Origin: an uncultured Bacillales bacterium
Lineage (GTDB): Bacteria > Bacillota_I > Bacilli_A > RF39 > UBA660
DNA length: 64,000 nt
Assembly: GCA_946412015.1 (NCBI GenBank)
Contig: CAMKGA010000004.1
Coordinates: forward strand, 3,858-67,857
Reading direction: 5' to 3'
Notes under the pieces: generated by a model
What the model saw: only the letters and a program-made list of their open reading frames with translations
Database searches by the model: none
What the model was told of the DNA's origin: nothing
Program-made: the position numbers and the translations under genes
Shown: positions 42,065 to 64,000 of the stretch, piece after piece
Layout: each line of letters opens with the position of its first letter
Position numbering within the stretch: the first letter of the stretch is position 1

Positions 42065-42613
42065 ATGGATTTAAAAATAATATATTATGTACATGGTACA
42101 ACATTTGATAATGCATCTAAAAAATGTAGTGGTTGGAAACAAGTAGAATTGAATGATTTAGGAAAAGAACAAGCAATTAATTTAGGAAAAAATACACCAT
42201 ATAAATTCGATGTATTATTTACATCAGACTTGATAAGAGCAAAGGAATCGGCAAAATTAGCTTTTCCAAAGTTTCAAGTAATTGAAGACAAAAGGCTTAG
42301 AGAATGTAATTATGGAGATTTAGATGGTGAAGATAAAAATCAAATTATATATGAAGACCATATAAATAATCCATTTCCAAACGGAGAATCTTTAAAAGAT
42401 GTAGAAAAAAGACTTAGAGATTTTTTTAAGTATGTAAAAGAAAATTACAAAGATAAAACTATAGGAATTATAGCTCATAGAGCCCCTCAATTAGCAATCG
42501 AGGTTATTACAAAGAATATATCTTGGGAAGAAGCTAATGCTAATGATTGGAGAAAAACAGGTGCTTGGCAGCCAGGTTGGGAATATTGTTTAAAAAAATC
42601 TGATTTATTTTAA
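42065..42613 (+). CDS. histidine phosphatase family protein (phosphoglycerate mutase-like)
   Basis: The start (IYYVHGTTFDNASKKCSGW) and the overall histidine-phosphatase (branch 1) pattern; ATG 42065 with RBS agaggtga. Confidence 0.65.
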   Translation: MDLKIIYYVHGTTFDNASKKCSGWKQVELNDLGKEQAINLGKNTPYKFDVLFTSDLIRAKESAKLAFPKFQVIEDKRLRECNYGDLDGEDKNQIIYEDHINNPFPNGESLKDVEKRLRDFFKYVKENYKDKTIGIIAHRAPQLAIEVITKNISWEEANANDWRKTGAWQPGWEYCLKKSDLF

Positions 42614-44263: not shown

Positions 44264-44540
44264 ATTTATTACCTTCCTTATCATACTATCTTTTAGTAAT
44301 TAATTCTTTTATCAAATAGTTAATAATGATTTCAGTAAATAATTTTTCCTTATTTTTATTCATATTTTAATTTATGATTTATATTTTTATATTATTCTTT
44401 TTTCTTCATAATTGGTCTATATTTACACAACTACAGTTTGTCTAAAAATGTTGTTTTTTATATAGATTTATGGTATACTCGAATAGTAAAGTAGTAAATC
44501 ATAAAAAACCTTTACGATGTATCATAAAGGAGGTGGAAAA

Positions 44541-47393: not shown

Positions 47394-50300
47394 ATGAAAT
47401 TAAAGAAGCATAAAAAAATTTTGATTCTTTTTGCTTTTGTTGTTGCTTTCTATGCCATTGTTAGTGGGACTTTTTCTATTTATAGAGAAAAAAAAGGGGA
47501 TAAGATTGATTTAAGTATTTTGGATGCTTCTGGAATGGTTACAGTAAATTTTAAGGCTAATGGTGGAGTAATTGATTCTGAAGATGAGACAAAAACTGTT
47601 CAATCAGGTACGACTATTGGACAATTACCAGAAGCAACAAGAGATGATTATAATTTTGATGGATGGTATACTGAACCAACGGGTGGAGAAAAAATTGATG
47701 AGAATACTGTGGTAACGGGAACAACTGTTGATTATTATGCACATTGGATTAAAATAGTATGTAAAAAGGCCGTAACTGGTACATTACACAGTGAAACTTG
47801 TGCTCAAGGTGGAGCGTGTTCAGGATCTGGCGGTGGTTATCACGCTAATGATACTATCTATTATGGAACAATTCCAAGTTCTATTAGCCCTATTGTCGGA
47901 GATGCTTATGATTGTGATGTAAACGATGATGATACATGGGATCCTCAGACTGAAAGATTTTATTATGTTAGACATTATGGGACAACAGATGAATTTGAAA
48001 ATTCTGTATTGGTTCATTATACAAGTTTTGATGATTTAGGGCAAATGGATTCATCTCCTTCAAGAACCAATTATTTATACGGAGATGCTAGTGATTATTT
48101 ACCTACATCTGCAACTTGGGATAATCCAGCTCTTATTGAAATGAATGGTAATATTACTAGATTTATTGCACGAGAGGATTTAGCTGCAGCTTGTGGTTCT
48201 GAATCAGGAGGAAATAAATTTGAAAATTGCCGCTTCTATTTAGAAAATAGTAGGTATCAATCTAGTAGTTTAGGTAGAGCAGGTATATGGTTAGCTGCCG
48301 AAGGAAATACACATTATAGAATTCATACAGAACAACTATCTGTTTCAGTTGCTGATACAGATAGTAAAAATACAGTTAGACCAACTATTCAAATTCCGTC
48401 TAATAGAATAGAAGATTTTAACAAGAAGAAAAAATATACTATAAATCTTGATTCTCAGGATGGAATGCCAAGCGAGTATTCTTTTGAGAAATGGGAAGGT
48501 GAAAGATTAGACACACTTCCAATCCCAACAAAATTTGGTTATATTTTTTCTGGATGGTATACAGACAATGAAGATTATACAACTGAAATTACACAAAATA
48601 CTATTGTAACAGGTAATATTAATGGATATGCTAAATGGGTACCTAAACAAGTGCCATTAGATTATGTATTCTATATACCAGGAGAGTGTTCTTTTACATC
48701 AACAGGTATTGTAAATGGTGAAAATGGAGATTGTATTAGTACAATTAATCCAACAGGATCAAATATTGATTATACAGGAAGTTCTTTATCTTCAAAAAAA
48801 TACATAGATACTCAAGTAGGTTTATATAATTCAATAAATCACGATAAAGATTTTGAAGTGGGATTTACTATCGTAAGTTATAATTCAGCTGATAATATAA
48901 ATAGAGCAACATTAGTTCATTCAAAAGCAGAAATAGTAAATAGATATCCAGGATTTACGTTTAGAAAAAAAGATGCTACAAATAATTTTTTACTACAGTC
49001 TAGAGAAACACAAAGTAGTAATGCTGAGTATATAATTGCATCCTCATCTGTACAAAATGTAAAAATATATAGAATAAGTAATTCTATTTACTATAGTATA
49101 AATGATGGTGAAAAAACTAAATTAAATGATTTAAATCAATACAATCCAGTTTTTGATTTAACAACTTGGTTTGGTGGTGCTCCAAAAGATGAATCAGCAC
49201 TTGTTGCGGATAGATTATTTATAGGTACATTAAGTAATATGTATATCAAACTATCTCCAACAGCAAAAGTAACATTTGATCCTAATTATACTGGAGAACC
49301 ATCATTTGAACAAGATGCTAATGTTGGTAAAAAAATTGGTGATTTACCAACAATTACTAGACCGGGATATGCATTTATTGGTTGGTATACCGATCCAGTT
49401 AATGGTTCTAAGATTAACTCAAATACTATAATTGATGGAGATATTAGATTTTATGCTCATTGGACTGATGGTGCTACAGTAACACTTCATGCAAATGGTG
49501 GAAGTGTAAGTCCAAATACAATAACAGTTTATCATGGACATGAAGTAGGAAATCTTCCGACACCAGAGAGAACAGGATATACTTTTGATGGTTGGTATCA
49601 AGATGTGAATCTTACAATTCCTGCTACATCAGAAACAGTAATAAATCAAAATACAGATTTCTACGCAAAATGGATTGAAAATGTTACTATTACATTTGAT
49701 GCTGATGGTGGAGAAGTAAGTCCAACTAGTAAAACACAAGCTTCTGGACTTGCAATTGGAGATTTGCCAATACCATCAAAAATAGGTTATGACTTTGTAG
49801 GTTGGTATACCGATAATACATATACAACAGAAGTAACTTCTTCGACAGTGTTTAATACAACAACAACAATTATTGCAAAATGGGAAGAATTAGATGATAT
49901 AACTGTTAATTTTGATGCAGATGGAGGAAGTGTAAGTCCAACTAGTGTTACATTCCCACCTGGATCAGCAATAGGTGAATTACCAATTCCGGAAAAAACA
50001 GGATATAATTTTGTAGGTTGGTATACGGATAATACATATACAACAGAAGTAACATCTTCTACAACATTTAATACAACAACAACAATTATTGCAAGGTGGG
50101 TAGATGAGCAATATGTAGCTTGTGTAGGATTGAATTGTTATCTAACATTAGATGAAGCTATAGCTGCGGTACCAACTACTAAAGTAAAAACTAAAGTTAA
50201 AATCTTAAAAGATATTACGACTACAGATACTATAAATATAACAAGTAGCAAATGGGTTGAATTAGATATTGGAAATAATACTATTAGTGCTACTAGCGGA

Positions 50301-53114
50301 ACGTTCTCTTTGTTTACAAATACAGGTAAATTAGATATTATTAATGGTAAATTATATAGTTCAGGTGGATATATTATTGAAAATAAATCTACTGCAACTG
50401 TAAATATTTATGATGGAGAGCTAACTTATAATAAATCAAGTGATGGTGAGAAAAAAGTAATTGAAATTAAAGGTGGAACAGTTAATATTTACGGTGGAAC
50501 ACTTTCTTGTAACTCTAAAGCTGCAGTAATTAATGTTAATGCAGGAGCGTCATTAAATGTATATGGTGGAAAAATTAAGGGTACTAATACATTTAAAGGA
50601 CAAGCAGTTTATAACAATGGTGGAATAGTAACAATAAGTGGAACAGCTTATTTAGAGAATAACTCTCAGACTGGTACTGCAAATGGTAGAGCAGCTCTTC
50701 ATAATAATGCTGGAACAATTAATATACTTGGTGGAACAATTATAAGTAATAATAATTCAGCTGTAAAAAATAGTGATACAATGACAATTGGTACTAATGA
50801 TGATCCAATAGATAATACAAACCCAGTTATGCAAGGCTATAATTATGGTTTAGAAATAGCTAGTGGGAAAACAGTAACAGTTTACGATGGTATTTTCAAA
50901 GGTAATGTAAATACTAATAATAAAGCAATTAATGATGAATCAGGCGTAATTGTTAATAATGCAACAATTGTTCATACCAATGAAACAATAGATAATATTC
51001 AATATGATGTAGCTTATCTAGAAGATATTTCAGTTAATATTACAGTAAACTTTAATAAAAATGGTGGGGATACGGTTGAGTATAATTCAAAAACATTAAC
51101 TGAAATAGGTCCTATTGGAAACCTGCCTACTGCAACTAAAGCTAATTCAGAATTCTTAGGTTGGTTTACTGCAGGAGTTGGTGGAGAAAGAGTACTTTCA
51201 ACAACAGAAGTTGATGATGATGTTACTTATTTCGCACATTATACAAACACAAAAACAGTATGTAGACCAGCGACTGTTCTACATTCATCTGGATCAACAG
51301 AATTTGGACAAATTCCAAGTAGTCCATCATTAAGTGCTGGAGACGCTTTTGATTGTGATGTTAATGGTGACGGCACATATGATGCAACAAATGAAAGATT
51401 TTATTATTTAAATAAAACAAGTGATGGCAAAGCAGTATTAATATTCTATAATAATACATCACAAGTTAATAATAATGTATCTCCAGTTTGTAGTGCAACT
51501 GCTGTTAGTTATGCTCCTACATTTACAGAAGGTCCAAATACAGCTATTTCTGAGCTTCCTACGATAGCTCAGTGGCCAAATGTAAGTTTATATACAGAGC
51601 CAAGAACTATCACAGATGAGTCTGGAAATACTGTTTTAAGTAATTATGTATATAGTGGTTCAGCTGCAAGATTTGCAACTCTTGATGAGATTAAAGCAGC
51701 AACTAATTCTAATTTAAATGAAACTGCAAATGAGTTAGAAGATTACACATTCTTACTTGAAAATACAATTTCATATGGAAGCGATTGTAGATCAAATTAT
51801 TGGTTAGAAACAGTTAATTCAAATGGTGGAGCTGAAAGAATTAATGGTGCTGTTACTGCTAAGAGTCTTGGCCATGCTTCTGGTAATTCAGGAGTAAGAC
51901 CTGTAATCGAAGTCCCATTTGATTCAATTGAAGGAGCAATAAATATTGTTGAATTTGATACAATTCCAGAAGCAATGAGAACATATTTTAACAATGTTAA
52001 TTCATGGAATACTGGACAGGATGATACAAATTATAGTAGTTTTAATGATGCTATGACAGCAAATCTTAATAATTATGATTGTGCATATTATAAAAATGAT
52101 AATGTTACAACACAATATGGTAGTGTCTATTGTGATCAGCCAAATAAGTATAATACAGGTATTACAGGTAATATTAATGTATATGAATATAACGAGTTAA
52201 CAGGATTAAGATCAAATAATACAGTAAACTATGTATTTAATGATAATGGTAAGCTATATAATTTTATTCCTGGTAAAACATATTATTGGGAATCAGCTAG
52301 TGATAATACTAAAAAAGGTTTTGTAAGACCTACTGGTGAAAGACGACTTATTACTATTCCTGGTGTTAATAGACAGACGCGTAATGTAAGAGATTTAGGT
52401 GGCCTTCCTGTTGATACAAATGGTGATGGTGTTATTGATGGAAAACTTAAATATCAAAAGCTATATCGTGGTGAAAAAATTTGGGGATTAAATAATGATG
52501 GTACAACAAGAGCACAATTTGAAAAGTTAGGTATTTATAATGAATATGACCTTCGAACTCCAGGTTCAGATATTGTTATATCAGAAGAAGATAAATTGGC
52601 AAATTATAATCAAAACGAAATAGTTCATTATAAGATTGATCATACTGAATTTGGATCTCCTGCAACAGAAACACGTTTCAATGGTAAAAGTTATTATCAG
52701 TTATCTAGAGATGCTGCAATAGATGTAATGAAAAAAGTAGTAGCTGGTAATGATGATTATTCTATTTATTTACATTGTCGTATAGGAGCTGATAGAACAG
52801 GTACTCTTGCTTATTTATTAGAAGGTGTTTTAGGAGTGCCAACGGAATATAGATATCAAGATTATGAATTAACAACTTTCTTCGGATTAAGAGAAAGAAC
52901 AAGGTATTATTATATGAAAGATTCTACTAATGATATGTATAAATTCATATATTTAAAAAAAGCAATTCGTCATGCAACTTTAGGAAATGATGAGATTACT
53001 GGAGAAGAAAATGTAATTGATTGGTTCTTATTAGAAGGTAATTCCACAAGTGAATGTAGTGATATAACTGCACTAATAAATCAATTTAGAGCTAAGATGA
53101 TTGACTATAATTAA
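47394..53114 (+). CDS. giant (1906 aa) surface/secreted protein: SipW-type signal, Listeria-Bacteroides (Flg_new) repeats, parallel beta-helix, duplicated VRPVI modules, C-terminal CX5R tyrosine-phosphatase-like domain
   Basis: N-terminal FAFVVAFYAIVSGTFSIY signal. Seven G[YF].F.GW[YF]T..........W repeats, Gly-rich GG..IYGG beta-helix repeats, and a C-terminal HCRIGADRTG (CX5R P-loop). Two ~220-aa modules end in ..YW..G....VRP[VT]I..P. Confidence 0.7.
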   Translation: MKLKKHKKILILFAFVVAFYAIVSGTFSIYREKKGDKIDLSILDASGMVTVNFKANGGVIDSEDETKTVQSGTTIGQLPEATRDDYNFDGWYTEPTGGEKIDENTVVTGTTVDYYAHWIKIVCKKAVTGTLHSETCAQGGACSGSGGGYHANDTIYYGTIPSSISPIVGDAYDCDVNDDDTWDPQTERFYYVRHYGTTDEFENSVLVHYTSFDDLGQMDSSPSRTNYLYGDASDYLPTSATWDNPALIEMNGNITRFIAREDLAAACGSESGGNKFENCRFYLENSRYQSSSLGRAGIWLAAEGNTHYRIHTEQLSVSVADTDSKNTVRPTIQIPSNRIEDFNKKKKYTINLDSQDGMPSEYSFEKWEGERLDTLPIPTKFGYIFSGWYTDNEDYTTEITQNTIVTGNINGYAKWVPKQVPLDYVFYIPGECSFTSTGIVNGENGDCISTINPTGSNIDYTGSSLSSKKYIDTQVGLYNSINHDKDFEVGFTIVSYNSADNINRATLVHSKAEIVNRYPGFTFRKKDATNNFLLQSRETQSSNAEYIIASSSVQNVKIYRISNSIYYSINDGEKTKLNDLNQYNPVFDLTTWFGGAPKDESALVADRLFIGTLSNMYIKLSPTAKVTFDPNYTGEPSFEQDANVGKKIGDLPTITRPGYAFIGWYTDPVNGSKINSNTIIDGDIRFYAHWTDGATVTLHANGGSVSPNTITVYHGHEVGNLPTPERTGYTFDGWYQDVNLTIPATSETVINQNTDFYAKWIENVTITFDADGGEVSPTSKTQASGLAIGDLPIPSKIGYDFVGWYTDNTYTTEVTSSTVFNTTTTIIAKWEELDDITVNFDADGGSVSPTSVTFPPGSAIGELPIPEKTGYNFVGWYTDNTYTTEVTSSTTFNTTTTIIARWVDEQYVACVGLNCYLTLDEAIAAVPTTKVKTKVKILKDITTTDTINITSSKWVELDIGNNTISATSGTFSLFTNTGKLDIINGKLYSSGGYIIENKSTATVNIYDGELTYNKSSDGEKKVIEIKGGTVNIYGGTLSCNSKAAVINVNAGASLNVYGGKIKGTNTFKGQAVYNNGGIVTISGTAYLENNSQTGTANGRAALHNNAGTINILGGTIISNNNSAVKNSDTMTIGTNDDPIDNTNPVMQGYNYGLEIASGKTVTVYDGIFKGNVNTNNKAINDESGVIVNNATIVHTNETIDNIQYDVAYLEDISVNITVNFNKNGGDTVEYNSKTLTEIGPIGNLPTATKANSEFLGWFTAGVGGERVLSTTEVDDDVTYFAHYTNTKTVCRPATVLHSSGSTEFGQIPSSPSLSAGDAFDCDVNGDGTYDATNERFYYLNKTSDGKAVLIFYNNTSQVNNNVSPVCSATAVSYAPTFTEGPNTAISELPTIAQWPNVSLYTEPRTITDESGNTVLSNYVYSGSAARFATLDEIKAATNSNLNETANELEDYTFLLENTISYGSDCRSNYWLETVNSNGGAERINGAVTAKSLGHASGNSGVRPVIEVPFDSIEGAINIVEFDTIPEAMRTYFNNVNSWNTGQDDTNYSSFNDAMTANLNNYDCAYYKNDNVTTQYGSVYCDQPNKYNTGITGNINVYEYNELTGLRSNNTVNYVFNDNGKLYNFIPGKTYYWESASDNTKKGFVRPTGERRLITIPGVNRQTRNVRDLGGLPVDTNGDGVIDGKLKYQKLYRGEKIWGLNNDGTTRAQFEKLGIYNEYDLRTPGSDIVISEEDKLANYNQNEIVHYKIDHTEFGSPATETRFNGKSYYQLSRDAAIDVMKKVVAGNDDYSIYLHCRIGADRTGTLAYLLEGVLGVPTEYRYQDYELTTFFGLRERTRYYYMKDSTNDMYKFIYLKKAIRHATLGNDEITGEENVIDWFLLEGNSTSECSDITALINQFRAKMIDYN
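49684..50103 (+). repeat. tandem near-identical duplication of a 216-bp (72-codon) Flg_new repeat unit inside the giant gene
   Basis: 49800..49878 and 50016..50094 are ~92% identical at DNA level (ggttggtataccgataatacatatacaacagaagtaac...); the flanking parts of the units are also similar. Confidence 0.6.
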
Positions 53115-53120
53115 AAAAAT

Positions 53121-53160
53121 TAGTAGTGTTGGTAATTATATTTACCAGCACTATTTATTT
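53121..53160 (+). terminator. putative rho-independent terminator after giant gene
   Basis: Hairpin agtgttggtaa-ttatat-ttaccagcact (one G-U pair) followed by a T-rich run. Confidence 0.4.
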
Positions 53161-53204
53161 TGAAATCTTGATAAGTTTAGTAAAATATGATATTATTCTA
53201 CTAG

Positions 53205-53660
53205 GTGATTAGAGTGGAAACGAAGCAAAGAAAAATTAAATTAAAAAGCATAATTATATTATTAAGTATAGTTTTAATAATTGGAGTTGTGTTAGTATTT
53301 ATATTGAAAAAAAATAATACAATAGATGATGGTCTTAAACACAATAATAATAAAAGTTTTGTACAAAAGCAAAAGGTAAAGGGGATTATTTTTAAAAATA
53401 TAAAATGTACTTATGATGGTAAAAATTCATTGATTAGTTATACTATGGTTAATAAAACGAAAAATAAAATATATTTAAACAATTATGATGTAATAGTAAA
53501 GGATAAAAATAAAGTTAAACTTGTTAGAATAGCTGCTCACGTTACACAAACTCTATCGCCTGATGAACCAGTAGATATGGCTAATCAAGTAGTAGGAGTA
53601 GACTTAACAAATGCTCATTATATGGAATTAAAATTGAATACCAAAAAGAAGGATAAGTAA
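53205..53660 (+). CDS. small membrane-anchored hypothetical protein
   Basis: N-terminal TM (SIIILLSIVLIIGVVLVFIL); no recognised domain. Confidence 0.3.
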   Translation: MIRVETKQRKIKLKSIIILLSIVLIIGVVLVFILKKNNTIDDGLKHNNNKSFVQKQKVKGIIFKNIKCTYDGKNSLISYTMVNKTKNKIYLNNYDVIVKDKNKVKLVRIAAHVTQTLSPDEPVDMANQVVGVDLTNAHYMELKLNTKKKDK

Positions 53661-53821
53661 TATGAGATTACTTATTTTTTTAATAAATATATAAATAGTA
53701 ATATATTTTATAATATAATTTATTTATAATATCTTCTATCGTGAGGTGGCGACAGTCATTGTGTAACAAATATTAAGTATAACAATTAAAGCCTAAATAT
53801 GATAAGAAAAGAGGAAATGCT

Positions 53822-54172
53822 ATGAATATTAGTTACATTAAACAAGGGGATTATTTATTACCTGATTTAATACTAAAAGAGAAAGTTCAATATAATATAG
53901 GAAAATATGGATTATTAAGATTAGAGTATATAAAAAAATATAAACTTGGATTATATTTTGATTTACTTGTTAATGATAATTTAAATGAATATCTTCAAGA
54001 TATAGACACTACTGTTATGGAGAAGGTGCAAAGTTTAATTAAAGAACTTGATGAAAAAGAAAATATAAATGAAAAATTAAAACAAGATAATCAAATACTT
54101 TGGGTAAGTAAAATGAATAATATTAAAAATATAGCAGAAGAAATAATTCTAAAGGAGTATATCTATGTGTGA
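53822..54172 (+). CDS. TnpV-like protein (Tn4451/Tn5397-type mobile element accessory protein)
   Basis: 116 aa; length and blocks (…EYIKKYKLGLYFDLL…NQILWVSKMNNIKNIAEEII) resemble what I recall of TnpV. This was not verified by search. Confidence 0.35.
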   Translation: MNISYIKQGDYLLPDLILKEKVQYNIGKYGLLRLEYIKKYKLGLYFDLLVNDNLNEYLQDIDTTVMEKVQSLIKELDEKENINEKLKQDNQILWVSKMNNIKNIAEEIILKEYIYV

Positions 54173-54464
54173 TATTACCGATAAAGAATTTGAAAGAATA
54201 TACTTACCAGTATGTATTAATTATGATAACTATCTAAAAGAATTTGTAATACCCGATGTAGTAGCTTTTTATATAGCAGATAATTTTTATAAGAAAGTAC
54301 TTTCTAAAGCACCACTTTATAATCATATTAATTCAGCAATAGATATTTTTAACGTAAGATGTGATATAGATAAATTAATACCATCTATAAAAAAGATATT
54401 AAAAATAAAATATAATTTAAGGATAGTAAAAGATAATCCATTAATATTAAAGAAATTTTATTAA
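54165..54464 (+). CDS. hypothetical protein (99 aa)
   Basis: ORF overlapping the tnpV-like stop by 8 nt. Confidence 0.2.
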   Translation: MCDITDKEFERIYLPVCINYDNYLKEFVIPDVVAFYIADNFYKKVLSKAPLYNHINSAIDIFNVRCDIDKLIPSIKKILKIKYNLRIVKDNPLILKKFY

Positions 54465-54696
54465 AAAGAAGAACTCTATCAAATTTAAACGATAGAGTTT
54501 TTAAGTTCAATTATTATTTTAGGAGTTATGTTATTGTCTAGCCAGCACTTAATTTGTACTCTCGTACGAAATTCTTTCGTGGGATTACTCCCAAACCCTA
54601 TTTTAAAAATTTGTAAGTATTTCAATGTCAAAATTAAAAATTTGTCGAATTATATGTTATAATAATATTGATTTGAAACTTTAGGAGTGAGAGAGT

Positions 54697-55353
54697 ATGA
54701 AAGAAAAATGTGGAGTAATTTATATATTAACTAATCCATCATTTCCAGAGTATATCAAAATTGGATATGCTGACGATGTTGAAGCAAGAGTAAAACAATT
54801 AAATAATTCTGAGGCTGTTCCTTTTTCATTTCATATTTATGCAACATTTGATGTAACTGAGAGATTAACTGATATAAAATTACACAAGTTTATAGATACT
54901 ATAAATCCAGAACTTAGAAGTAAAGAAAAAATAGGAGATAAAATTAGAGTCAGAGAATTTTATCATATGAGCCCAGAAGAAATGTATTCTGCATTTGAAA
55001 GTATGGCTGAAATAAATGGAACAACTAATAGACTTCATTTATGGAAGGAAACAAATGAAGAAATAGAAGATAGGAAAGAAGCATTATTATTATCAAAAAA
55101 TAGACATCATTTTAAAAATATAAATTTTCATTCAAGTTTAACAGGAAAAGATTATTATTCTAAAACAAATGAAGATGGAACTTTGGGTATATATGAAAAA
55201 GATACAGATAATGAAGTTCCTAATAATTCAAATCCCTCAAAACGTCAAATCTTATATTCAGCACTTGAAGATTTAGGTGGAGATGTATCTAGTGGAAATA
55301 CTTTATATCAATTAGAGCATAAATTAGAGAAAATTTTAGTTAGTAGGAAGTGA
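54697..55353 (+). CDS. T5orf172 / GIY-YIG superfamily domain protein
   Basis: GVIYILTNPSFPEYIKIGYADDVEARVKQLNNSEAVPF matches the T5orf172 (MUG113-like GIY-YIG) consensus. RBS ggagtgagag. Confidence 0.6.
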   Translation: MKEKCGVIYILTNPSFPEYIKIGYADDVEARVKQLNNSEAVPFSFHIYATFDVTERLTDIKLHKFIDTINPELRSKEKIGDKIRVREFYHMSPEEMYSAFESMAEINGTTNRLHLWKETNEEIEDRKEALLLSKNRHHFKNINFHSSLTGKDYYSKTNEDGTLGIYEKDTDNEVPNNSNPSKRQILYSALEDLGGDVSSGNTLYQLEHKLEKILVSRK

Positions 55354-55357
55354 TTAT

Positions 55358-56488
55358 ATGTCAAAGAATCATCAGTTAACAAACGCAAAAAAAAATAAAG
55401 ACGATGAGTTTTATACTGAATATTCAGATATTCAAAAAGAAATAAATGCCTATATAGAATATAATCAAGATGTTTTCAAAGATAAAACAATATTACTACC
55501 ATGTGATGATCCAGAGTGGTCAAATTTTACAAAGTTTTTTGCTCAAAACTTTGAAAGATTTGGATTAAAAAAATTAATAAGTACGAGTTATGCTAATGAT
55601 AAAAAGAATGATATATATATTCAATTATCATTATTTGAATCAGAGTCACCTAAATTTGATAAGAATAAGACTAATTCACATGGGAAAATATTTACATTAG
55701 ATAGAGATACAAATAAATCAGGTAGAATTGATATAAATGATTTAGAATGGGACTATCTAAAAGGAGATGGAGATTTTAGATCTGACGAAGTGAAAAAATT
55801 AAGAGATGAAGCTGATATAATAGTTACTAATCCACCTTTTAGTCTATTTAGAGAATTTATTGATTGGATTTTTGAGGGTAAAAAAGATTTTATAATATTA
55901 GGAAATGAAAATAATGAAACGGATAAAGATATCTTTACTTTAATTAGAGAATCAAAGATGTGGCTTGGTAAATCTAATGGTGAAATGGCTTTTAAAGTTC
56001 CAAAAACATCAGAAAAAAGAGATACAAGATTTTGGATAGATGAGACTGGTCAAAAATGGCGAAGTTTTGGAAATATGTGCTGGTTTACCAATCTTGATTT
56101 AGGAAGAAGACATCAACCACTGAGATTAATGAATATGGCTGATAATTTGAAATATAATAAACCATTAATAAAAACATTAAGTGAGAAGTATAATGTTGAT
56201 TTCTATCCTGAATTTGATAATTATGATGTGATAGAAGTTCCAAGATATGATGCAATTCCTTATGATTATAACAAACCAATGGCTGTTCCAATTACTTTTT
56301 TAAAGTATCATGACCCACATCAATTTAAAATTTTAAATGCAAATGATTTTAGAAAAAATAATTCCATTCCGATTAAAGCACATGGATTGATAAAAGATAA
56401 GGAAAGCACTATAAATGGGAAGGCAACATATGTTAGAGTTGTAATTATAAGTAGAGGTGAAGAATATGAAAACAATATTGAAAACTGA
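55358..56488 (+). CDS. EcoRI-methylase-family N6-adenine DNA methyltransferase
   Basis: N-terminus …NAKKNKDDEFYTEYSDIQKEI… matches what I recall of the M.EcoRI N-terminus (…KAKKSKSDEFYTQY…); catalytic TNPPFS (NPPF) motif at ~aa 157. Confidence 0.65.
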   Translation: MSKNHQLTNAKKNKDDEFYTEYSDIQKEINAYIEYNQDVFKDKTILLPCDDPEWSNFTKFFAQNFERFGLKKLISTSYANDKKNDIYIQLSLFESESPKFDKNKTNSHGKIFTLDRDTNKSGRIDINDLEWDYLKGDGDFRSDEVKKLRDEADIIVTNPPFSLFREFIDWIFEGKKDFIILGNENNETDKDIFTLIRESKMWLGKSNGEMAFKVPKTSEKRDTRFWIDETGQKWRSFGNMCWFTNLDLGRRHQPLRLMNMADNLKYNKPLIKTLSEKYNVDFYPEFDNYDVIEVPRYDAIPYDYNKPMAVPITFLKYHDPHQFKILNANDFRKNNSIPIKAHGLIKDKESTINGKATYVRVVIISRGEEYENNIEN

Positions 56489-57629
56489 TTTAACTGTTAG
56501 AGATATAAATGAAGGATTTGTTTATAATGAGTATGAAGGTAAAGGTTTATTTGGTTGGGGTGGAAAATTAACTATTCAACCAGAATATCAAAGGAATTAT
56601 ATTTATGCTGATGGGAAAAGAGATGTTGCAGTAATTGACTCATTATTAAAAGGATATCCTTTAGGTTTGTTATATTTTGTTAAAGTTGGGGAAGATAAAT
56701 ATGAGATATTAGATGGACAACAAAGAGTTACTAGCTTCGGAAGATTTATTACGGATAAATTTGCTATTAAGGATGAACATGGCATGGAGCAATATTTTGA
56801 TGGTTTTGCCAAGAATTTACAAGATAAAATTTTAGATTCTCAATTAACAATTTATATTTGTGAAGGTGAAGAATCAGAAATTAAAGAATGGTTTAAAACG
56901 ATTAATATTGTAGGTGTTCCACTTAATAATCAAGAATTATTAAATGCAATTTATTCAGGACCATTTGTAACTATGGCTCGTGAAGAATTCTCTAATTCTC
57001 AAAATGCAAATATTCAAAAATGGAGTGCATATATAAAGGGTGATGTAAATAGACAAGAGTATCTTGCAACAGCACTTAATTGGGTAAGTAAAGGGAATGT
57101 TGATAGTTATATGAGTCAACACAGATTTGATACTAATATTACAGAATTAAAATCATATTTTAACTCTGTAATAACTTGGGCATCAACTGTATTTAAAGAT
57201 GTTAAATCTGATATGAGGGGCTTAGAATGGGGAAGATTATATGAAATGTATCATAATAATTCATATGATCCTAACAAAGTTTCAGAAATACTATGTAAAT
57301 TATATGCTGACCCTCAAGTACAAGATACTAAGGGTATATGCGAGTATATATTGGGTGGATGTAAAGATACTAAATTATTAAATATTAGAGTATTTGATGA
57401 TAATACAAAGCGAGTTGTATATGAAAAACAAACTCAAGAAGCAAAATTAAAAGATATTAGTAATTGTCCATTATGTGCAATGGGAAATGACAATAATAAA
57501 AATAGAATTTGGGAATTAAAAGAGATGGATGCAGATCATGTAACAGCATGGAGCAAAGGCGGCTCTACTGATATTGATAATTGCCAGATGCTATGTCAAA
57601 CACATAATCGAGCAAAAGGAAATAAATAG
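56466..57629 (+). CDS. DUF262 (ParB/GmrS-like, DGQQR) + C-terminal HNH nuclease protein
   Basis: ILDGQQRVTSF is the DUF262 signature. The C-terminus CPLC...DADHVTAWSKGG...NCQMLCQTHNRAKGN is an HNH motif. Its start overlaps the MTase stop by 23 nt, which indicates translational coupling. Confidence 0.7.
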   Translation: MKTILKTDLTVRDINEGFVYNEYEGKGLFGWGGKLTIQPEYQRNYIYADGKRDVAVIDSLLKGYPLGLLYFVKVGEDKYEILDGQQRVTSFGRFITDKFAIKDEHGMEQYFDGFAKNLQDKILDSQLTIYICEGEESEIKEWFKTINIVGVPLNNQELLNAIYSGPFVTMAREEFSNSQNANIQKWSAYIKGDVNRQEYLATALNWVSKGNVDSYMSQHRFDTNITELKSYFNSVITWASTVFKDVKSDMRGLEWGRLYEMYHNNSYDPNKVSEILCKLYADPQVQDTKGICEYILGGCKDTKLLNIRVFDDNTKRVVYEKQTQEAKLKDISNCPLCAMGNDNNKNRIWELKEMDADHVTAWSKGGSTDIDNCQMLCQTHNRAKGNK

Positions 57630-57704
57630 TATTAAAGCGCTAGTACAGGCTTAAATATATTTAAGTTTTTGTATTGCGCTTTTTATGTAGTGGGAGGTAA
57701 TTAT

Positions 57705-59834
57705 ATGCAGTTAGAATTTTTAAAACTAAAAAAGGAAAATATTTTTTGTGAAGATTTTATTGATATGAATAAAAATAATATAATTGATTTTACTAATACA
57801 AACATCAGTGTTTTATATGCTCCTAATGGTGTTGGTAAAAGTAGTTTTTGTAAAGTTTTAGATAATCAAGGAGAATTTACACTTAACTATGATGGAAATC
57901 AATATTCAACTAATAATTGTAATTTGTTTCATATTATAAATGATCAGAATAGTAGAAATATTATTAAAGGAAAAGCGCAAGACTTTTTATTAGGTGATAA
58001 TATAGCTAGAGAATATGAACTTAAAGAATGGATTGATGATAAATTTGATGATATTTATAAGGATTTAAGATTATCATTAAAAAATAATATGAATTTGTCT
58101 AAAATTTCAGATAATAAATTTTCATGGATAGATCATTCATTACATAATATTCTGAAAAAGATTGTAAATGTTAGAGCAAAATCAACAGATATTAATCTAG
58201 ATGATTATATACATCTTATTCAAAAATTGAAAGAAGAAAAACTGGATGAACATAATGCTGATAAATTTAAGTATGTCATTTCTGATGAAAATTTTGAAAT
58301 TATTAATAGAATAGTGAGAATTTCTAATATTAAGGAATCAAACGATTTTTCCAAAATCGAACAATATGATGATGCTATTATTATATTAAATAAATATAAT
58401 GAATTAAGTAATTGTATAGTTTGTGATAATGACAATATTAATTCAAAAGAATTACTGGAAAAGAAGAATATTAAAAAAGCAGAAATAATTAATAATCTTG
58501 ACGATGATACTAAAAATATATTAATTGAAATTATAAATAGAATTGGTGAAACTGATCCTTTTAATATAAAAAATACTTTGACTCGTGCAATATCATCTGG
58601 AAGTATAGATATTGTTTCAAATCTTATAAAAGAGATTGAAATGTACATTAATATTTATAAATCTTTAATAAACAATTTATTATCTTCTTCACTTTCAAAA
58701 GAATTTGTTGATAAATATACAGAATATAAAGAAATGTTGACTAAAGAATTAAATATTACTGATGAGGACTTAATGTTTATTGAAGAATTTATAGAAAAAA
58801 ATATCAATAAAAGCATAAAATTACAAAGAGCAGATAATAGAATTGTTATTACTTTAGATTCTGAAGATTTAATTGGAGTAGCGCGTGAAAATTTAAAATT
58901 GAGTTCTGGTGAACAAAATTTTATTTCATTAACATTTGAACTTTTGAAAGCAAAAAATGTTGAAAATGAAATAATAGTTATAGATGATCCAATCTCAAGT
59001 TTTGACTCTATTTTTAAAAATAAATTGGTATATGCTATAGTAAAATTTTTAATAAAAAAGAAAGTAATTATTTTAACTCACAATATTGATTTAATACGAT
59101 TAATTGAATATCAAAATAAAAATAGTTTTAACATTTATTTATTTAATAATTTTGATGGACAAGAAAATGGATTTATTGAAGTTAATCGTAATGAAAAAAT
59201 GCTTTTAATTTCAATCCCTGATTTTCTCGATTTTATTCGTTCGAATGAAATTATTGAATTTGTAAAAGATGAAAAATTATATATTTATTCATTAATTCCA
59301 TTTATGAGGGGATATGTTAAATATACAGGTGATCAAGTTATAAAAAATCAATTAACAAAATTAATGCATGGATATGAAACAGAATATGTTGATTTAGGAC
59401 AAATATATTATTCACTATTTAATAATAACTTAATTAATAATTATACTATAAATATTAGTGATATATTAAGTTTAGATATTTGTAATCTAAATGAGATTAT
59501 TGACAAAAACGAATATCCAATTTTGAATAAAGTTTTATGCAATAATCTTACATATTTGTATTTAAGATTGAAAACTGAAAAAACATTAGTCGATAAATTT
59601 AGTATTAATACCACTAAATATGATCAACTTTCAAGTATAATTTTCCAATCATTTAAAGAAGAAACAATTGAAAATAGTAGGATGAGAATATTTTTCTATT
59701 CAAAAAAAACATTGCTTAACGAGTTTAATCACTTTGAAGGAAATATAAATATTTTTCAGCCTGCTATAGATATATCTGAGAATATTTTAATCAAAGAGAG
59801 AAATGAAATTTTAGATAAATTAAATAATTTATAA
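57705..59834 (+). CDS. ABC/SMC-like ATPase (AAA_15/AAA_21-type) with ~400-aa uncharacterised C-terminal region
   Basis: Walker A VLYAPNGVGKSSF, signature-like LSSGEQNF, Walker B IIVIDDPISSFD. RBS gtgggagg; 710 aa. Confidence 0.6.
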   Translation: MQLEFLKLKKENIFCEDFIDMNKNNIIDFTNTNISVLYAPNGVGKSSFCKVLDNQGEFTLNYDGNQYSTNNCNLFHIINDQNSRNIIKGKAQDFLLGDNIAREYELKEWIDDKFDDIYKDLRLSLKNNMNLSKISDNKFSWIDHSLHNILKKIVNVRAKSTDINLDDYIHLIQKLKEEKLDEHNADKFKYVISDENFEIINRIVRISNIKESNDFSKIEQYDDAIIILNKYNELSNCIVCDNDNINSKELLEKKNIKKAEIINNLDDDTKNILIEIINRIGETDPFNIKNTLTRAISSGSIDIVSNLIKEIEMYINIYKSLINNLLSSSLSKEFVDKYTEYKEMLTKELNITDEDLMFIEEFIEKNINKSIKLQRADNRIVITLDSEDLIGVARENLKLSSGEQNFISLTFELLKAKNVENEIIVIDDPISSFDSIFKNKLVYAIVKFLIKKKVIILTHNIDLIRLIEYQNKNSFNIYLFNNFDGQENGFIEVNRNEKMLLISIPDFLDFIRSNEIIEFVKDEKLYIYSLIPFMRGYVKYTGDQVIKNQLTKLMHGYETEYVDLGQIYYSLFNNNLINNYTINISDILSLDICNLNEIIDKNEYPILNKVLCNNLTYLYLRLKTEKTLVDKFSINTTKYDQLSSIIFQSFKEETIENSRMRIFFYSKKTLLNEFNHFEGNINIFQPAIDISENILIKERNEILDKLNNL

Positions 59835-59985
59835 TTAGGTTCTATGAGAGTACAGTTTTTACTCCTTTTTTCTTTTTTGTAGAATATCTTTTTATTTTTA
59901 TTTGATGTAAGATGAAAACACCTAGGAGAAGTAGTATGTAAAAGTGCACTTTTATAAAGATATATTTTATGTATGATTCTATAGA

Positions 59986-60450
59986 ATGGATACTATGGAA
60001 GAATTTATAAATCCAATTATACCAATATCGGTATTAAGTGATAGTAGAATATTATCTTTAGAAAAGTTATTATTACTACACATAATTTCTTTGTGTAAGA
60101 ATAAAGGATATTGTTGGCCTACTAATAGGTATTTTATGAATAAGGTTAATTGCACCAAGACAACAGTATCAAAGAGTATAAGTAGTTTATCAAAGTTTGG
60201 ATATATTGATATAGAAATTAATAATAGTGAAACAAATAATTCAAAGAGGATAATTAGACTATCCGAAGTGTTAAAGAAAAGAATAACAAGTATTCAAGGA
60301 AATATTAATACTAGTATTCAAAATAATTTTAACCATTATAATAAATATAATAAAAATAATAAAGATAAAATAGATAACATTTATTATGTTGATGATAATG
60401 GTATGAATACTGGCATGGTAAACCTACCCTATCAAAAGAAGCAACTATAG
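59986..60450 (+). CDS. HTH protein resembling replication-initiator N-terminal (RepA_N/DnaD-like) domain
   Basis: ISVLSDSRILSLEKLLLLHIISLCKNKGYCWPTNRYFMNKVNCTKTTVSKSISSLSKFGYI resembles the N-terminal segment of 22058..22723. Confidence 0.35.
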   Translation: MDTMEEFINPIIPISVLSDSRILSLEKLLLLHIISLCKNKGYCWPTNRYFMNKVNCTKTTVSKSISSLSKFGYIDIEINNSETNNSKRIIRLSEVLKKRITSIQGNINTSIQNNFNHYNKYNKNNKDKIDNIYYVDDNGMNTGMVNLPYQKKQL

Positions 60451-60718
60451 AAGAGCAAGAAGAGTTAGAGAGAATATTAGAGAGTTTTAAAGAAAATGAG
60501 GAAGATATAAAATGACTAAGACACTCATAAACTTAAATGAGGTGGCTTATGTTTAATATAATAGAAACTTTCAAAGATGATTCTCCTAATTTTAATGAAC
60601 TGGTAACTGAATTTATAAAAAGTATGGTAAATAGAGACTGATATCGTGGGCCAAGTTAAATTTATGTGGTATAATTTAATTGGCTTTAGTTGTTATACAA
60701 CGGAAAAGGATAGTAAGC

Positions 60719-62299
60719 TTGTATAACACTTTAAAACAGATGCCAGATTACTATAAAGCAGGAATTTATATAAGATTATCAGAAGCTGATGAAGGCAAGT
60801 CTTACGAATCTGAAAGTGAGAGTGTCCTTAACCAAAGAAATATACTAATGAATTTTATTAAGGAAAAAGGATTTATTTTTGTAGATGAATATGTAGATGA
60901 TGGATATTCTGGCACTACTTTTGATAGACCAGGATTTCAAAGACTAATTGAAGATATTAAAGCTAAAAGAATTAATCTTGTAATAGTAAAAGACTTATCA
61001 AGATTAGGTAGAGATCATATTTTAACAGGTTATTATGTTGAAACTTTCTTCCCTGAAAATGGAATAAGATTTATTTCTATGCTAGAGGGGTATGATAATG
61101 CTGTAAATCAAGCAAGCAATGATTCATCAACATTTATCTTTGCTTGTAACGATTTTTATAGTAAACAAAATTCAGTTAAAATACGTAATGTTTTAAATGA
61201 TAAAAGAAGAGATGGTAAGTTTATAGGTAGTGTTCCAAGTTATGGATATTTAAGAGATCCAGAAGATAAGGGACACTTAATACCAGACCCAGATTATGCG
61301 TGGGTAGTAAAAAAGATATTTAATATGGCTTATAGTGGAGTAGGAGTTTCTGAAATAACTACTTATTTGAATGACAATAACATTAAAACACCTAGTAGTT
61401 TAAAAAGAAAAAATCCTAATTCAAAAGCTAAATATAATCCTATGTGGACTATTTCTTCAGTTAAAAAGATATTAAAAAATCAAATGTATGTAGGTGATAT
61501 GGTACAAAGTGTACAAACTAAGGTATCATATAAATCTAATAAGAAAAAAACATTACCTAAAAGTAACTGGGATATTGTTAAAAATACTCATGAACCATTA
61601 GTAGATAGATTTATATTTGAAAGTGTTCAAAATAATGTTAAAAGAACAAATGTTTCTAATGTTACTAAAAGAGAAAAAAGATTATTTGAAAATTTATTAT
61701 ATTGTAAAGAATGTGGTAATACTTTAACAGTATCATATAGAAAACAACATAACTATTGGACCATTAATTGTAATAGATATTCAAGAGATCCAAAAAGAAG
61801 AATGTGTGAACCTCATTTTAGCCCGTATGATAAATTAGAAGAAGCATTACTTGAAGTTATAAAAAATACTTGTAAAAAGTATTTAAAAAATTTAGATATA
61901 TCAGAAATATCTAAAAATATTAATAAAAAAGATAATAGTGATATTAATAATCAGATAAATGATTTAAGAAAACAAGAAAAAGACTTAATTAGTAAATTAG
62001 ATATGCTATATCAAGATAAATTTAATGGAATAGTATCTGAAGAAATGTATTTACGAATATCTAGAGAAACAGAGAATTCTTTAATTAGAACAAGAGAAAA
62101 AATCCAAAGTCTACAAGATATAAAAGAAGAGAAGAAAGTTAATAAATCAGAAATAAAAGACTACGAAGATAAAATAAGAAAATTAATTGATATTGATAAT
62201 TCTTCAAGAGAGTTAATACAAGCCTTAATCGATAAAATTGTTATAGATAAAGATAGAAATATAGAAATTATCTATAAATTTAGTATACTTAATAATTAG
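60719..62299 (+). CDS. large serine recombinase (second copy, TnpX/TndX-like)
   Basis: YKAGIYIRLSEAD...DDGYSGTTFDRPGF...VIVKDLSRLGRD is ~70% identical to the 42605..44263 protein in the catalytic domain; C-terminal zinc ribbon and coiled-coil. Probable TTG start at 60719 (RBS aaaagga); alternative ATG at 60740. Confidence 0.9.
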   Translation: MYNTLKQMPDYYKAGIYIRLSEADEGKSYESESESVLNQRNILMNFIKEKGFIFVDEYVDDGYSGTTFDRPGFQRLIEDIKAKRINLVIVKDLSRLGRDHILTGYYVETFFPENGIRFISMLEGYDNAVNQASNDSSTFIFACNDFYSKQNSVKIRNVLNDKRRDGKFIGSVPSYGYLRDPEDKGHLIPDPDYAWVVKKIFNMAYSGVGVSEITTYLNDNNIKTPSSLKRKNPNSKAKYNPMWTISSVKKILKNQMYVGDMVQSVQTKVSYKSNKKKTLPKSNWDIVKNTHEPLVDRFIFESVQNNVKRTNVSNVTKREKRLFENLLYCKECGNTLTVSYRKQHNYWTINCNRYSRDPKRRMCEPHFSPYDKLEEALLEVIKNTCKKYLKNLDISEISKNINKKDNSDINNQINDLRKQEKDLISKLDMLYQDKFNGIVSEEMYLRISRETENSLIRTREKIQSLQDIKEEKKVNKSEIKDYEDKIRKLIDIDNSSRELIQALIDKIVIDKDRNIEIIYKFSILNN

Positions 62300-62413
62300 A
62301 ACTTTGTCGCAAACTGAGACAAGGTGTACATATAAAAATTGATAAACTACTTATACAACTATTGTAATTAGAACATATGTTTGATATAATATATACAGCA
62401 AAGGAGGTATCTT

Positions 62414-63271
62414 ATGAATCAAGATAAAATGCATTTAGTAAATAAAATATTTAATAATGAAACAATTAGAACTGTTTGGGACAAGGAGCAAGAAAAATAT
62501 TTTATAAGTGTTGTTGACATAGTTGGAGTACTTGCCGATAGCACTGAACCTAGAAAGTATTGGAATTGGTTAAAAAGTAAGTTAAAAAAAGAAGAAAATT
62601 TTGAAACGTCTAGTATTACTAGACAGTTGAAATTGAAAGCCCAAGATGGTAAATATCGTATGACTGATGTTGTTGATATTGAAGGAATGTTTAGAATTAT
62701 TGAATCAGTTCCTAGCAAGAATGCAGAGCCTATAAAACAATGGCTAGCTAAACTAGGTAGTGAGAGAATAAATGAAACATTTGATCCTTCATTAGCAGCA
62801 CAAAGAGCGATAGACTTATATAGAGCTAAAGGTTATGATGAAAAATGGATTGCAAAAAGAATTAAAGGTATTCAGGATAGAAAACAACTTACTGATTTAT
62901 GGAAAGATGGTGGAATAACTGAATCAAAGGAATATGCAATTCTAACAAATGAAATTTATAAAGAATGGTCTGGCATGACTGCTAAAGAGTACAAATCATT
63001 TAAAGGACTTAGGAAAGAATCACTCCGAGATAATATGACTGATGTTGAAGTAGCACTAGCAGATTTAGGAGAAATAGCAACTAGAGAAATTGCCAAAAAG
63101 AAAAATCCAAAGGGTTTAAATGAAAATATAGATGTAGCAAGGCGTGGCGGTAAAATTGCTGGTAATGCAAGAAAAGAATTAGAACACGAAATAGGCGAAA
63201 GTGTAGTTACTAATGCAAATGCTTTAAACTATCAATATGTAGATGAAAGAGAAATTGAAATGAAAAATTAA
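62414..63271 (+). CDS. Bro-N domain protein (phage antirepressor / DinD-like)
   Basis: N-terminal ...IRTVWDKEQEKYFISVVDIVGVLADSTEPRKYWNWLK fits the Bro-N pattern; RBS aaaggagg. Confidence 0.65.
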   Translation: MNQDKMHLVNKIFNNETIRTVWDKEQEKYFISVVDIVGVLADSTEPRKYWNWLKSKLKKEENFETSSITRQLKLKAQDGKYRMTDVVDIEGMFRIIESVPSKNAEPIKQWLAKLGSERINETFDPSLAAQRAIDLYRAKGYDEKWIAKRIKGIQDRKQLTDLWKDGGITESKEYAILTNEIYKEWSGMTAKEYKSFKGLRKESLRDNMTDVEVALADLGEIATREIAKKKNPKGLNENIDVARRGGKIAGNARKELEHEIGESVVTNANALNYQYVDEREIEMKN

Positions 63272-63362
63272 TTACTCTAAGATGTAATAATTTTGAAAAA
63301 CAAAAAGTTATTACGCTTAACCGTAATAACTTTCTAAAATAAAAAAGTAGTAGGTGAGGTAA

Positions 63363-64000
63363 ATGGATAATAAATTTAATAATATGATTAATGAGTTTTT
63401 AGCAAATACTGATGCTAAAGATGAAAAAGAACTTAATGAAAAATTACAAGAGTTTATAAAAATGTATAATAATGGAGAAATAGAATATGAAAATACACCT
63501 CTAGATGATGCATATGAAATATTAGAAGAAGCACAAAATGCAAAAACTGAAAAAGAGGCTATAAAGTTGGCTAAAAAGGCATATGAAAAATCAAGAGAAT
63601 GTTTTGATGCAATTTTATTTCAATGTGATTTAGAAGAAAACGGAATAAAAAGAATGAAACTTTTAGATGATGGTTTAGAATTTGAAAAAAGCAGATTAAC
63701 AAAAGAGAAATATTTTGATAAAGAAAATATTGGACATTTTTATGGAATATTTGAAACAAGACCATACATTAGAGGATTGGTTATTAAAGCAGAGTATTTA
63801 CTAGAAGAAGGAAAAATAAGTCAAGCAGAAAATGTATGTAGGGAAGTTTTAAGATTAAATGAGAATGATAATATGGGTGCTAGATATTTATTAATGGCAA
63901 TATATGCAACATTAGAAAAGGAAAACGATATGTTGAAATTGTATAAAAAATATCCAGAAGAAGATTTAGAGATGATGTTCCCTTTATTTGCTCTATACTA
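63363..64000 (+). CDS. hypothetical protein, truncated by window end
   Basis: ORF starts MDNKFNNMINEF with RBS gtaggtgagg and continues to the edge; no domain recognised. Confidence 0.3.
   Translation, partial: MDNKFNNMINEFLANTDAKDEKELNEKLQEFIKMYNNGEIEYENTPLDDAYEILEEAQNAKTEKEAIKLAKKAYEKSRECFDAILFQCDLEENGIKRMKLLDDGLEFEKSRLTKEKYFDKENIGHFYGIFETRPYIRGLVIKAEYLLEEGKISQAENVCREVLRLNENDNMGARYLLMAIYATLEKENDMLKLYKKYPEEDLEMMFPLFALY

Follow-up and report, generated by a model that had tools for sequence, protein, structure and literature searches.

Four genes on the plus strand of a 64,000-nucleotide stretch of DNA (hereafter the window) from an uncultured, low-GC gut Bacilli bacterium, referred to here as g1 to g4, very probably represent three separately inherited defence modules and not one system. 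The modules are g1, g2 together with g3, and g4, and they appear to be stacked in a cargo bay with two slots, within a mobile element of about 9.6 kb, which carries TnpV and large serine recombinase genes and extends from about 53745 to 63340. The cluster is a mosaic of kinds that are known or already flagged: a Type II-like restriction-modification (R-M) pair, a candidate defence protein of the PDC-S57 family, and a RloC-like ATP-binding cassette (ABC) protein.

The open reading frame (ORF) listing of the window contains all four genes, between 54697 and 59834 (Table 1). We corrected the starts of g3 and g4 using homologue lengths and Shine-Dalgarno sites: g3 is taken to begin at the ATG at 56466 and not at the GTG at 56457, because its homologues are all 387 aa long, and g4 at the ATG at 57705 and not at the TTG at 57669, because GGGAGG precedes the ATG and the homologue lengths agree. 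With these starts, g1 and g2 are separated by 4 nt, g2 and g3 overlap by 23 nt, and 75 nt lie between g3 and g4. Inspection of the four protein sequences shows their catalytic motifs to be intact. An original prediction made from the DNA had described four plus-strand, defence-type genes with these junctions inside a TnpV/serine-recombinase mobile region, had called the first three products a T5orf172 protein, an EcoRI-family methyltransferase (MTase) and a DUF262-HNH protein, and had proposed the latter two as an R-M core. On all these points it is borne out, by Pfam for the domain calls and the mobility genes and with the corrected starts for the junctions; its further claim, that the four genes are one uncharacterised system, does not survive a check of their co-conservation.

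Close relatives of g3 and g4 are found in the same element scaffold with other companions. A 96%-identical g3 is present in ten contigs (L001–L010), and in all ten the order is TnpV, a 99-aa scaffold ORF (orf99), T5orf172, EcoRI-type MTase and DUF262/HNH, followed by AAA_15/21-TOPRIM and UvrD helicase genes, an HTH_36 gene and a serine recombinase gene. The AAA_15/21-TOPRIM and UvrD pair is Gabija, with PADLOC matches to GajA (6e-188) and GajB (2e-198), both full length. A 98%-identical g4 lies in the same scaffold 3' of genes for a Dam-type MTase, a PF09520 nuclease and an Mrr_cat protein, an 80%-identical g4 lies there 3' of T5orf172, a fused N6-methyladenine (m6A) and m5C MTase and two unknown ORFs, and a 69%-identical g4 is again 3' of a Dam/PF09520/Mrr set. 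A 50%-identical g4 (L018–L021, 6001–8151) is located in an unrelated integrase/Mob_Pre/RepA_N element with no R-M genes, where it is bracketed at 12–15-nt spacing by genes for a DUF6076 protein and an AlbA_2/HATPase_c_4/Fic-like_C protein, which may be alternative partners of g4.

The same independence is seen in broader surveys. A scan of genomes with a g4 profile gave 78 loci in many phyla, the nearest (98%) being in uncultured Bacilli metagenome-assembled genomes from Hadza gut samples; g1 is present at one of the 78 and g2/g3 at two. The 126 nearest neighbours of g4 relatives outside the sibling elements represent 101 Pfam families, with at most five occurrences of any one, and are a mixture of R-M parts, RloB, integrases and regulators with no conserved partner gene. 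For g3 we surveyed 80 metagenome loci (69–100% identity; gut, sludge, marine and brine samples), counting each neighbour only among loci with enough flanking sequence, hence the denominators of 66, 46 and 39. T5orf172 accompanies g3 relatives at 5 of 46 loci, g4 at 1 of 39 and GajA at 1 of 39, and the sole locus with g4 is on a contig that is 100% identical to the window (L111).

Comparisons of DNA place the boundaries between modules precisely. Similarity to the Gabija variant runs through g1–g3 and the 75-nt spacer, stops at 57707, in the ATG of g4, and resumes at 59848, 14 nt past the g4 stop codon. Similarity to L011 covers the scaffold and an 81-nt element at 54518–54598, skips 54599–57619, and then continues from 57620 onward. 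It is thus highly improbable that all four genes form one integrated, uncharacterised system in which a GIY-YIG protein and an ATPase supplement an R-M-like core. Such a system would account for the shared strand, the tight junctions, the single promoter-like site 5' of g1 and the absence of any strong canonical terminator call inside the cluster, and the exact four-gene arrangement does recur in L031 (98% g4) and L111; both of these, however, belong to the window's own lineage. Elsewhere Gabija stands in place of g4, g4 stands behind other R-M sets or none, co-occurrence is as low as the survey counts above, DNA breakpoints coincide exactly with module borders, and a conserved hairpin and U-run separate g3 from g4. 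PADLOC likewise assigns the pieces to separate units (MTase_II and full-length REase_II, PDC-S57, and weak PDC-S46/S06 matches). We conclude that the single-system reading fails because the four genes are not co-inherited and because PADLOC splits them, both of which had been named beforehand as findings that would tell against it.

Table 1. Features of the mobile element and its cargo (window coordinates; a dot marks features without an assigned strand).
Feature	Coordinates	Strand	Evidence and remarks
TnpV gene, left scaffold	53822..54172	+	Pfam TnpV 5e-35; common to all sibling elements
orf99, 99-aa scaffold ORF, always 3' of TnpV	54165..54464	+	Present in L001–L017, L030–L032
Terminator-like hairpin closing TnpV/orf99 unit	54472..54499	.	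Terminator scan
Conserved left junction of cargo bay	54518..54606	+	Alignment of 6 variants
Promoter-like site TTAAAA-18-TG-TATAAT, upstream of g1	54634..54663	+	Consensus scan only; kept in T5orf172-carrying variants
g1, T5orf172 (GIY-YIG subfamily) protein	54697..55353	+	218 aa; Pfam, PADLOC PDC-S57, motifs
g2, EcoRI-family N6-adenine DNA methyltransferase	55358..56488	+	376 aa; Pfam, PADLOC MTase_II, NPPF
g3, predicted DUF262-HNH restriction endonuclease	56466..57629	+	387 aa; Pfam, PADLOC REase_II
Inter-module junction: 21-bp hairpin and U-run, terminator-like, then Shine-Dalgarno site of g4	57630..57704	+	Conserved in 8 variants
g4, RloC-like protein: split ABC ATPase head, helical CxxC insert, C-terminal helical domain with R-x3-E...H	57705..59834	+	709 aa
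HTH_36/DnaD_N-like protein, right scaffold	59986..60450	+	Pfam; PHROG replication-initiator families; kept in siblings
Large serine recombinase	60680..62299	+	Pfam Resolvase, Recombinase and Zn_ribbon_recom; kept in siblings
Bro-N domain protein	62414..63271	+	Pfam Bro-N 1e-6; phrog_15286 3e-100
Right-end stretch with hairpin, approximate limit of sibling similarity	63281..63341	.	blastn to L011, L030, L031

Two conserved non-coding junctions frame the cargo. The left junction, of about 85 nt, is kept in all siblings, and the sequences diverge immediately after it according to cargo. It shows no covariation and gave no Rfam match (53000–64000 searched, E <= 0.1); it may serve as a site of recombination or of protein binding. 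The junction between g3 and g4 is kept whatever genes flank it (equivalents in L001, L011, L012, L014 and L030–L032). Its hairpin has a predicted folding energy of -19.3 kcal/mol (z -2.8), with none of 200 shuffles equally stable, and one of its base pairs is preserved through two independent double substitutions. The hairpin looks like an intrinsic terminator or attenuator, and the Shine-Dalgarno site and ATG of the downstream gene follow it directly. This placement makes a simple four-gene operon less likely, although read-through, and hence co-transcription of all four genes, is possible.

From profile matches and gene context, g2 and g3 are best read as a Type II-like R-M pair that is autonomous and spans phyla. 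The g2 protein matches Pfam EcoRI_methylase over nearly its full length (3e-116) and PADLOC MTase_II (1e-89), contains an NPPF motif, and has no match in NCBIfam. The g3 protein matches GmrSD_N/DUF262 (1e-19) and HNH (PF01844; 5e-8) in Pfam, with DGQQR and DADH...HN motifs, and the PADLOC restriction endonuclease (REase) profile REase_II, PDLC03418, over its full length (8e-93; 5–372 of 372). Among the metagenome loci, an EcoRI-family MTase gene lies directly upstream of the g3 relative in 65 of 66, often overlapping it, and the pair occurs by itself on plasmids of Enterococcus, Pediococcus and Pseudarthrobacter (counted here as three phyla), where the genes are annotated as 'adenine-specific methyltransferase EcoRI family protein' and 'DUF262 domain-containing protein'. 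Since the pairing is kept across phyla, a conventional methylation-protected restriction system is the best reading. One observation counts against it: in the host part of the window none of the palindromes AATT, GAATTC, CAATTG or AAATTT is depleted.

An alternative is that g3 encodes a Type IV, modification-dependent nuclease like GmrSD or BrxU, and not the cognate REase of g2. The combination of an N-terminal DUF262 domain with a C-terminal nuclease of His-Me type is the layout of those enzymes, and there are weak PADLOC matches to HEC-05/06 and NsnA. We consider this very unlikely because the C-terminal domain is a PF01844 HNH and not DUF1524 and the MTase is always there; the near-constant upstream position of the MTase gene, the conservation of the pair across phyla and the strong, full-length Type II profile match also argue against it.

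Within this presumptive Type II-like pair, sequence conservation is much higher in the nuclease than in the MTase. Identities for REase and MTase are 96% and 56% between the window and L001, 96–98% and 56–61% for the close siblings, and about 70% and 39–68% in metagenomes. DNA similarity breaks at 56335–56463, within the 3' end of the MTase gene, and this break suggests that the MTase was swapped by recombination. In two of the siblings (L005, 1611–2830; L010, 3500–4719) the MTase gene is split into ORFs of 86 and 319 aa and the REase gene is intact. The split may reflect a frameshift, an error of assembly or phase variation and, if real, would be lethal beside an active REase. Separately, the host part of the window, 1–53700, contains fewer GATC and CATG sites than expected (observed/expected 0.56 and 0.58; z -4.7 each), which hints at past or present R-M systems of those specificities elsewhere in the genome.

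The protein encoded by g1 matches Pfam T5orf172 (2e-11), has GVIY, YIKIG and REFY motifs, and matches PADLOC PDC-S57 (1e-55) over aa 4–145 (profile positions 3–145 of 221), leaving its last ~73 aa outside the match. Its Pfam domains are limited to T5orf172/MUG113, NCBIfam gave no match, and its PHROG matches are to families of unknown function only. The PDC families comprise 145 candidates selected for lying within BREX, DISARM or Type I R-M loci (Payne et al., 10.1101/2024.01.29.577857). Sampled homologues (59–74% identity) are found in varied settings: 3' of a Type III R-M system in an island that also has a helicase and GmrSD, in a CBASS-containing island, immediately 5' of a Type III mod-res pair, and alone among housekeeping genes. 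In L191–L194 (342–6735) a 62%-identical homologue lies between genes for a 1212-aa Type IIG R-M fusion (N6_Mtase, Eco57I and Methylase_S) and a 674-aa AAA_21 ATPase, so that T5orf172 is again beside R-M and an ATPase, here from different families. The variety of contexts indicates that the gene is mobile by itself and repeatedly linked to R-M. We take g1 to be an optional R-M-linked accessory or a hitchhiker and, from its sequence relationships, a candidate defence gene.

Some observations speak for closer ties than three independent modules would need. In L168 (4105–7170; also in L156) the order T5orf172-MTase-REase recurs with junctions of 2 nt and 1 nt, between housekeeping flanks, in a deeply diverged lineage whose three proteins have 34%, 41% and 70% identity to those of the window and whose T5orf172 protein matches PDC-S57 over its full length (6e-62). 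Likewise, in every sibling element with g4, g4 is directly 3' of some R-M set, and in L091 (8001–12667) a 42%-identical g4 relative is followed, 252 nt on, by genes for a 40%-identical EcoRI-family MTase and a 39%-identical DUF262-HNH protein, which are the window's families in a different order and a distant lineage. The L168 recurrence means that g1 may be functionally tied to the R-M pair beyond being a mere neighbour, and the g4 positions together with L091 leave functional cooperation between g4 and R-M conceivable. The L091 pairing may have arisen by chance or may point to a recurring link between g4 and R-M. In L168, just 5' of the trio, lies a separate GIY-YIG-like ORF of 85 aa (3446–3703).

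These observations bear first on the possibility that g1, g2 and g3 form a functional three-gene unit, with g1 acting as an accessory (a second nuclease, a regulator or an anti-restriction sensor) and g4 separate, which we regard as doubtful but worth retaining. The same order with tight junctions (gaps of 4 or 2 nt; an overlap or 1 nt) in two deeply diverged lineages favours it, as does the full-length PDC-S57 match in L168, and in L012 an EcoRI-like MTase gene still accompanies g1 despite different downstream genes. Against it, T5orf172 is missing from 41 of the 46 g3 loci with enough upstream sequence, the plasmid-borne MTase-REase pairs lack it, and g1 homologues are found alone or beside Type III, Type IIG and CBASS loci. 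L012, moreover, shares ancestry with the window, as DNA similarity extends from TnpV into the 5' end of the MTase gene.

It has also been reported that T5orf172 proteins, a GIY-YIG subfamily, include homing endonucleases of phages, located at the borders of genetic exchange (PMC10448857). By this precedent g1 might be a selfish gene of homing-endonuclease type, whose cutting promotes recombination and partly explains the mosaicism of the cassettes. Its position at the left edge of a swappable module, and the L012 breakpoint just inside the adjoining MTase gene, would fit; but Pfam finds none of the CapR/DUF723-type zinc-finger DNA-binding domains of those endonucleases in g1, and PDC-S57 was flagged through its embedding in defence loci. 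We consider a homing function rather improbable and favour an R-M-linked accessory or hitchhiker.

The g4 protein is best described as RloC-like. The original prediction had assigned it to AAA_15/21, as used by Septu, PARIS and Gabija, and had left its C-terminal ~400 aa unassigned as one block; neither statement holds. Pfam gives AAA_13 (PF13166; 4e-13), PADLOC gives no GajA, PtuA or AriA match at E <= 0.01, NCBIfam matches are generic ABC-transporter families only and PHROG matches are to families of unknown function only. In a structure model, a helical insert of ~300 aa (about aa 98–395) interrupts the ABC head, which ends near aa 492, and only the last ~217 aa make up an all-helical domain of their own. 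An alignment of 41 relatives (40–88% identity) shows invariant Walker A (G42, G44, K45), signature (S400, G402, E403, Q404) and Walker B (D427, D428) residues and an invariant switch His, H459; also invariant are C237-x-x-C240 in the middle of the insert and R621-x3-E625-x50-H676, with N675, in the C-terminal domain. RloC has been defined by ABC motifs, a CX2C zinc-hook/coiled-coil insert, an Arg-X3-Glu-X36-52-His triad and a length of 658–897 aa (Davidov & Kaufmann 2008, PMC2610378). All four are present in the g4 sequence, as ABC motifs, a CxxC insert, R-X3-E-X50-H and 709 aa.

Other observations caution against a firmer assignment. The AAA_13 match spans aa 407–510 only. Alignment by hhalign to a fragment of Geobacillus kaustophilus RloC (residues 121–480) read by optical character recognition covers the CxxC alone (E 0.055, 15 columns). 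Finally, PrrC and RloC nuclease domains count among the divergent HEPN domains, frequently in R-M or mobile surroundings (PMC3710099); g4 lacks the classical HEPN Rx4-6H motif and has K668-x7-H676. A Foldseek search with the C-terminal domain gave nothing significant, and that domain is at most weakly HEPN-like. We use the name 'RloC-like', short of claiming a proven RloC member, because the alignment to the RloC fragment is limited to the hook; whether g4 acts as a tRNase, as the analogy implies, we judge to be evenly balanced. The g4 family is compact, with 204 representatives at E <= 1e-30 and full-length members of about 710–800 aa, and is a tight, phylum-spanning clade apart, of about 200 clusters at 50% identity. 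No match was found by tblastn against plasmids or in a scan of viral contigs, so nothing indicates that g4 is plasmid- or phage-borne.

A further possibility is that g4 is coupled to the adjoining R-M system as PrrC is to EcoprrI, either silenced by R-M proteins or activated by REase breaks or phage anti-restriction, and so provides a second line of defence. The consistent position of g4 3' of an R-M set in the sibling elements is in keeping with this, as are the R-M parts (HaeIII, AlwI, EcoO109I and N6_N4 MTase) that make up about 15 of the 126 nearest neighbours of distant relatives, and the pairing in L091 of a distant g4 with a distant MTase-REase pair of the same families. The literature also places RloC-like ABC-HEPN genes in R-M neighbourhoods and describes activation of RloC by DNA breaks. 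Many g4 relatives, however, have no R-M neighbour. The R-M partners of g4 are mutually unrelated, which makes a specific PrrC-type protein-protein lock unlikely, and the presence of Gabija in the same slot behind the same R-M genes favours a generic cargo position. Coupling therefore seems unlikely to us, and we prefer to regard g4 as a stand-alone module.

The approximate extent of the element was taken from blastn similarity to its siblings, which covers about 53745–63340, the left start lying at about 53743. The scaffold comprises TnpV and orf99 on the left, the latter with no match in Pfam or PHROG, and the HTH_36/DnaD_N-like and recombinase genes on the right. The Bro-N gene is found in L012, L014, L031 and L032 and is missing from L030. 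Megablast of 53800–62300 against PLSDB plasmids and INPHARED phages gave no match. A second large serine recombinase gene (559 aa; 42605–44284, minus strand) lies 10 kb upstream, faces away, and has 65–71% DNA similarity to the recombinases of the siblings; it brackets a block with a PASTA protein, a signal peptidase and a giant surface protein. L030 likewise has two recombinases; the region may be a composite or tandem island. A repeat-rich secreted or surface protein of 1906 aa, encoded at 47394–53114, carries a C-terminal tyrosine-phosphatase domain (Y_phosphatase3, 4e-19; HCRIGADRTG motif), which is an unusual architecture.

The arrangement that we favour is one in which slot A (54607–57629) holds g1 and the R-M pair and slot B (57705–59834) holds g4 alone. 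The g2 protein would mark host DNA by m6A, the g3 protein would cut unmarked incoming DNA, and g1 would ride at the head of the pair. By analogy with RloC, the Rad50-like ABC head of g4, with its zinc-hook insert, may sense DNA or DNA damage during infection and then free a C-terminal R-E-H ribonuclease that would cut tRNA anticodon loops, leading to abortive infection. The conserved non-coding junctions could serve as homology arms through which homologous recombination swaps cassettes between siblings, exchanging Gabija for g4 and other R-M sets for g1–g3. A stronger version seems unlikely, namely that the element serves specifically as a 'defence cassette exchanger' with two slots, in which the two junctions are fixed recombination and expression adaptors, slot A accepts any R-M set and slot B any second-line abortive system, such as RloC-like g4 or Gabija, and slot B is functionally matched to slot A, for example through triggering of the g4 head by REase-made DNA ends.

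Several points are of general interest. Genes tightly packed on one strand of a mobile element did not turn out to be one system, and comparative context separated the modules cleanly. The g4 family, in which the CxxC hook and the R-E-H triad are invariant, lends itself readily to asking if tRNA-cleaving abortive defence works in gut Firmicutes. The DUF262-HNH nuclease and EcoRI-family MTase constitute a widespread type of R-M system whose site and possible dependence on nucleoside triphosphate (NTP) are apparently uncharacterised, and the TnpV/serine-recombinase element with its conserved junctions is a natural example of defence-cassette shuffling in human-gut Bacilli.

Among known systems, g2 and g3 resemble Type II R-M systems with an HNH REase and an EcoRI-family (gamma-class m6A) MTase in being an overlapping MTase-REase pair that is autonomous and mobile across phyla. 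Compared with classical Type II REases, the g3 protein is similar in its full-length match to a PADLOC/REBASE-derived Type II profile and differs in its N-terminal DUF262 domain (ParB/GmrS-like; NTP-binding in GmrSD and BrxU), which is unusual. It shares with the Type IV enzymes GmrSD and BrxU a DUF262 domain (DGQQR) fused to a His-Me finger nuclease; membership of that group, characterised by DUF262 with DUF1524 and no cognate MTase, was rejected, as g3 has a PF01844 HNH and an obligate MTase partner. For g1 the nearest known family is PDC-S57, which it resembles in its profile match and in belonging to a family inside or beside R-M loci, and from which it differs in its C-terminal ~73 aa.

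RloC, an anticodon nuclease that excises the wobble nucleotide, and g4 have in common a split ABC head, a helical CxxC 'zinc hook' insert, a C-terminal triad and a size range, and both are single genes often in mobile or R-M surroundings; the g4 insert is about 300 aa, compared with about 420 aa in G. kaustophilus RloC, and Asn, not Ser, precedes the His of the catalytic triad. PrrC, an anticodon nuclease paired with EcoprrI, is likewise an ABC-ATPase-plus-RNase protein beside R-M with a possible role as a second line of defence. PrrC lacks a coiled-coil/zinc-hook insert and is nearly always within an hsdMSR locus (Type Ic R-M), whereas g4 has an insert, lies behind Type II-like sets from unrelated families and is often without an R-M neighbour; with no hsd genes nearby and the insert present, membership of PrrC was rejected. 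The Gabija-bearing siblings share the scaffold, the g1-g2-g3 layout and the junction before slot B with the window, and differ in having GajA and GajB in place of g4. As a whole, the element presumably resembles those of the Tn4451/Tn4453 type, in which TnpV and the large serine recombinase TnpX flank cargo in low-GC Firmicutes; the element described here carries defence genes and not catP, together with HTH_36/DnaD_N and Bro-N genes.

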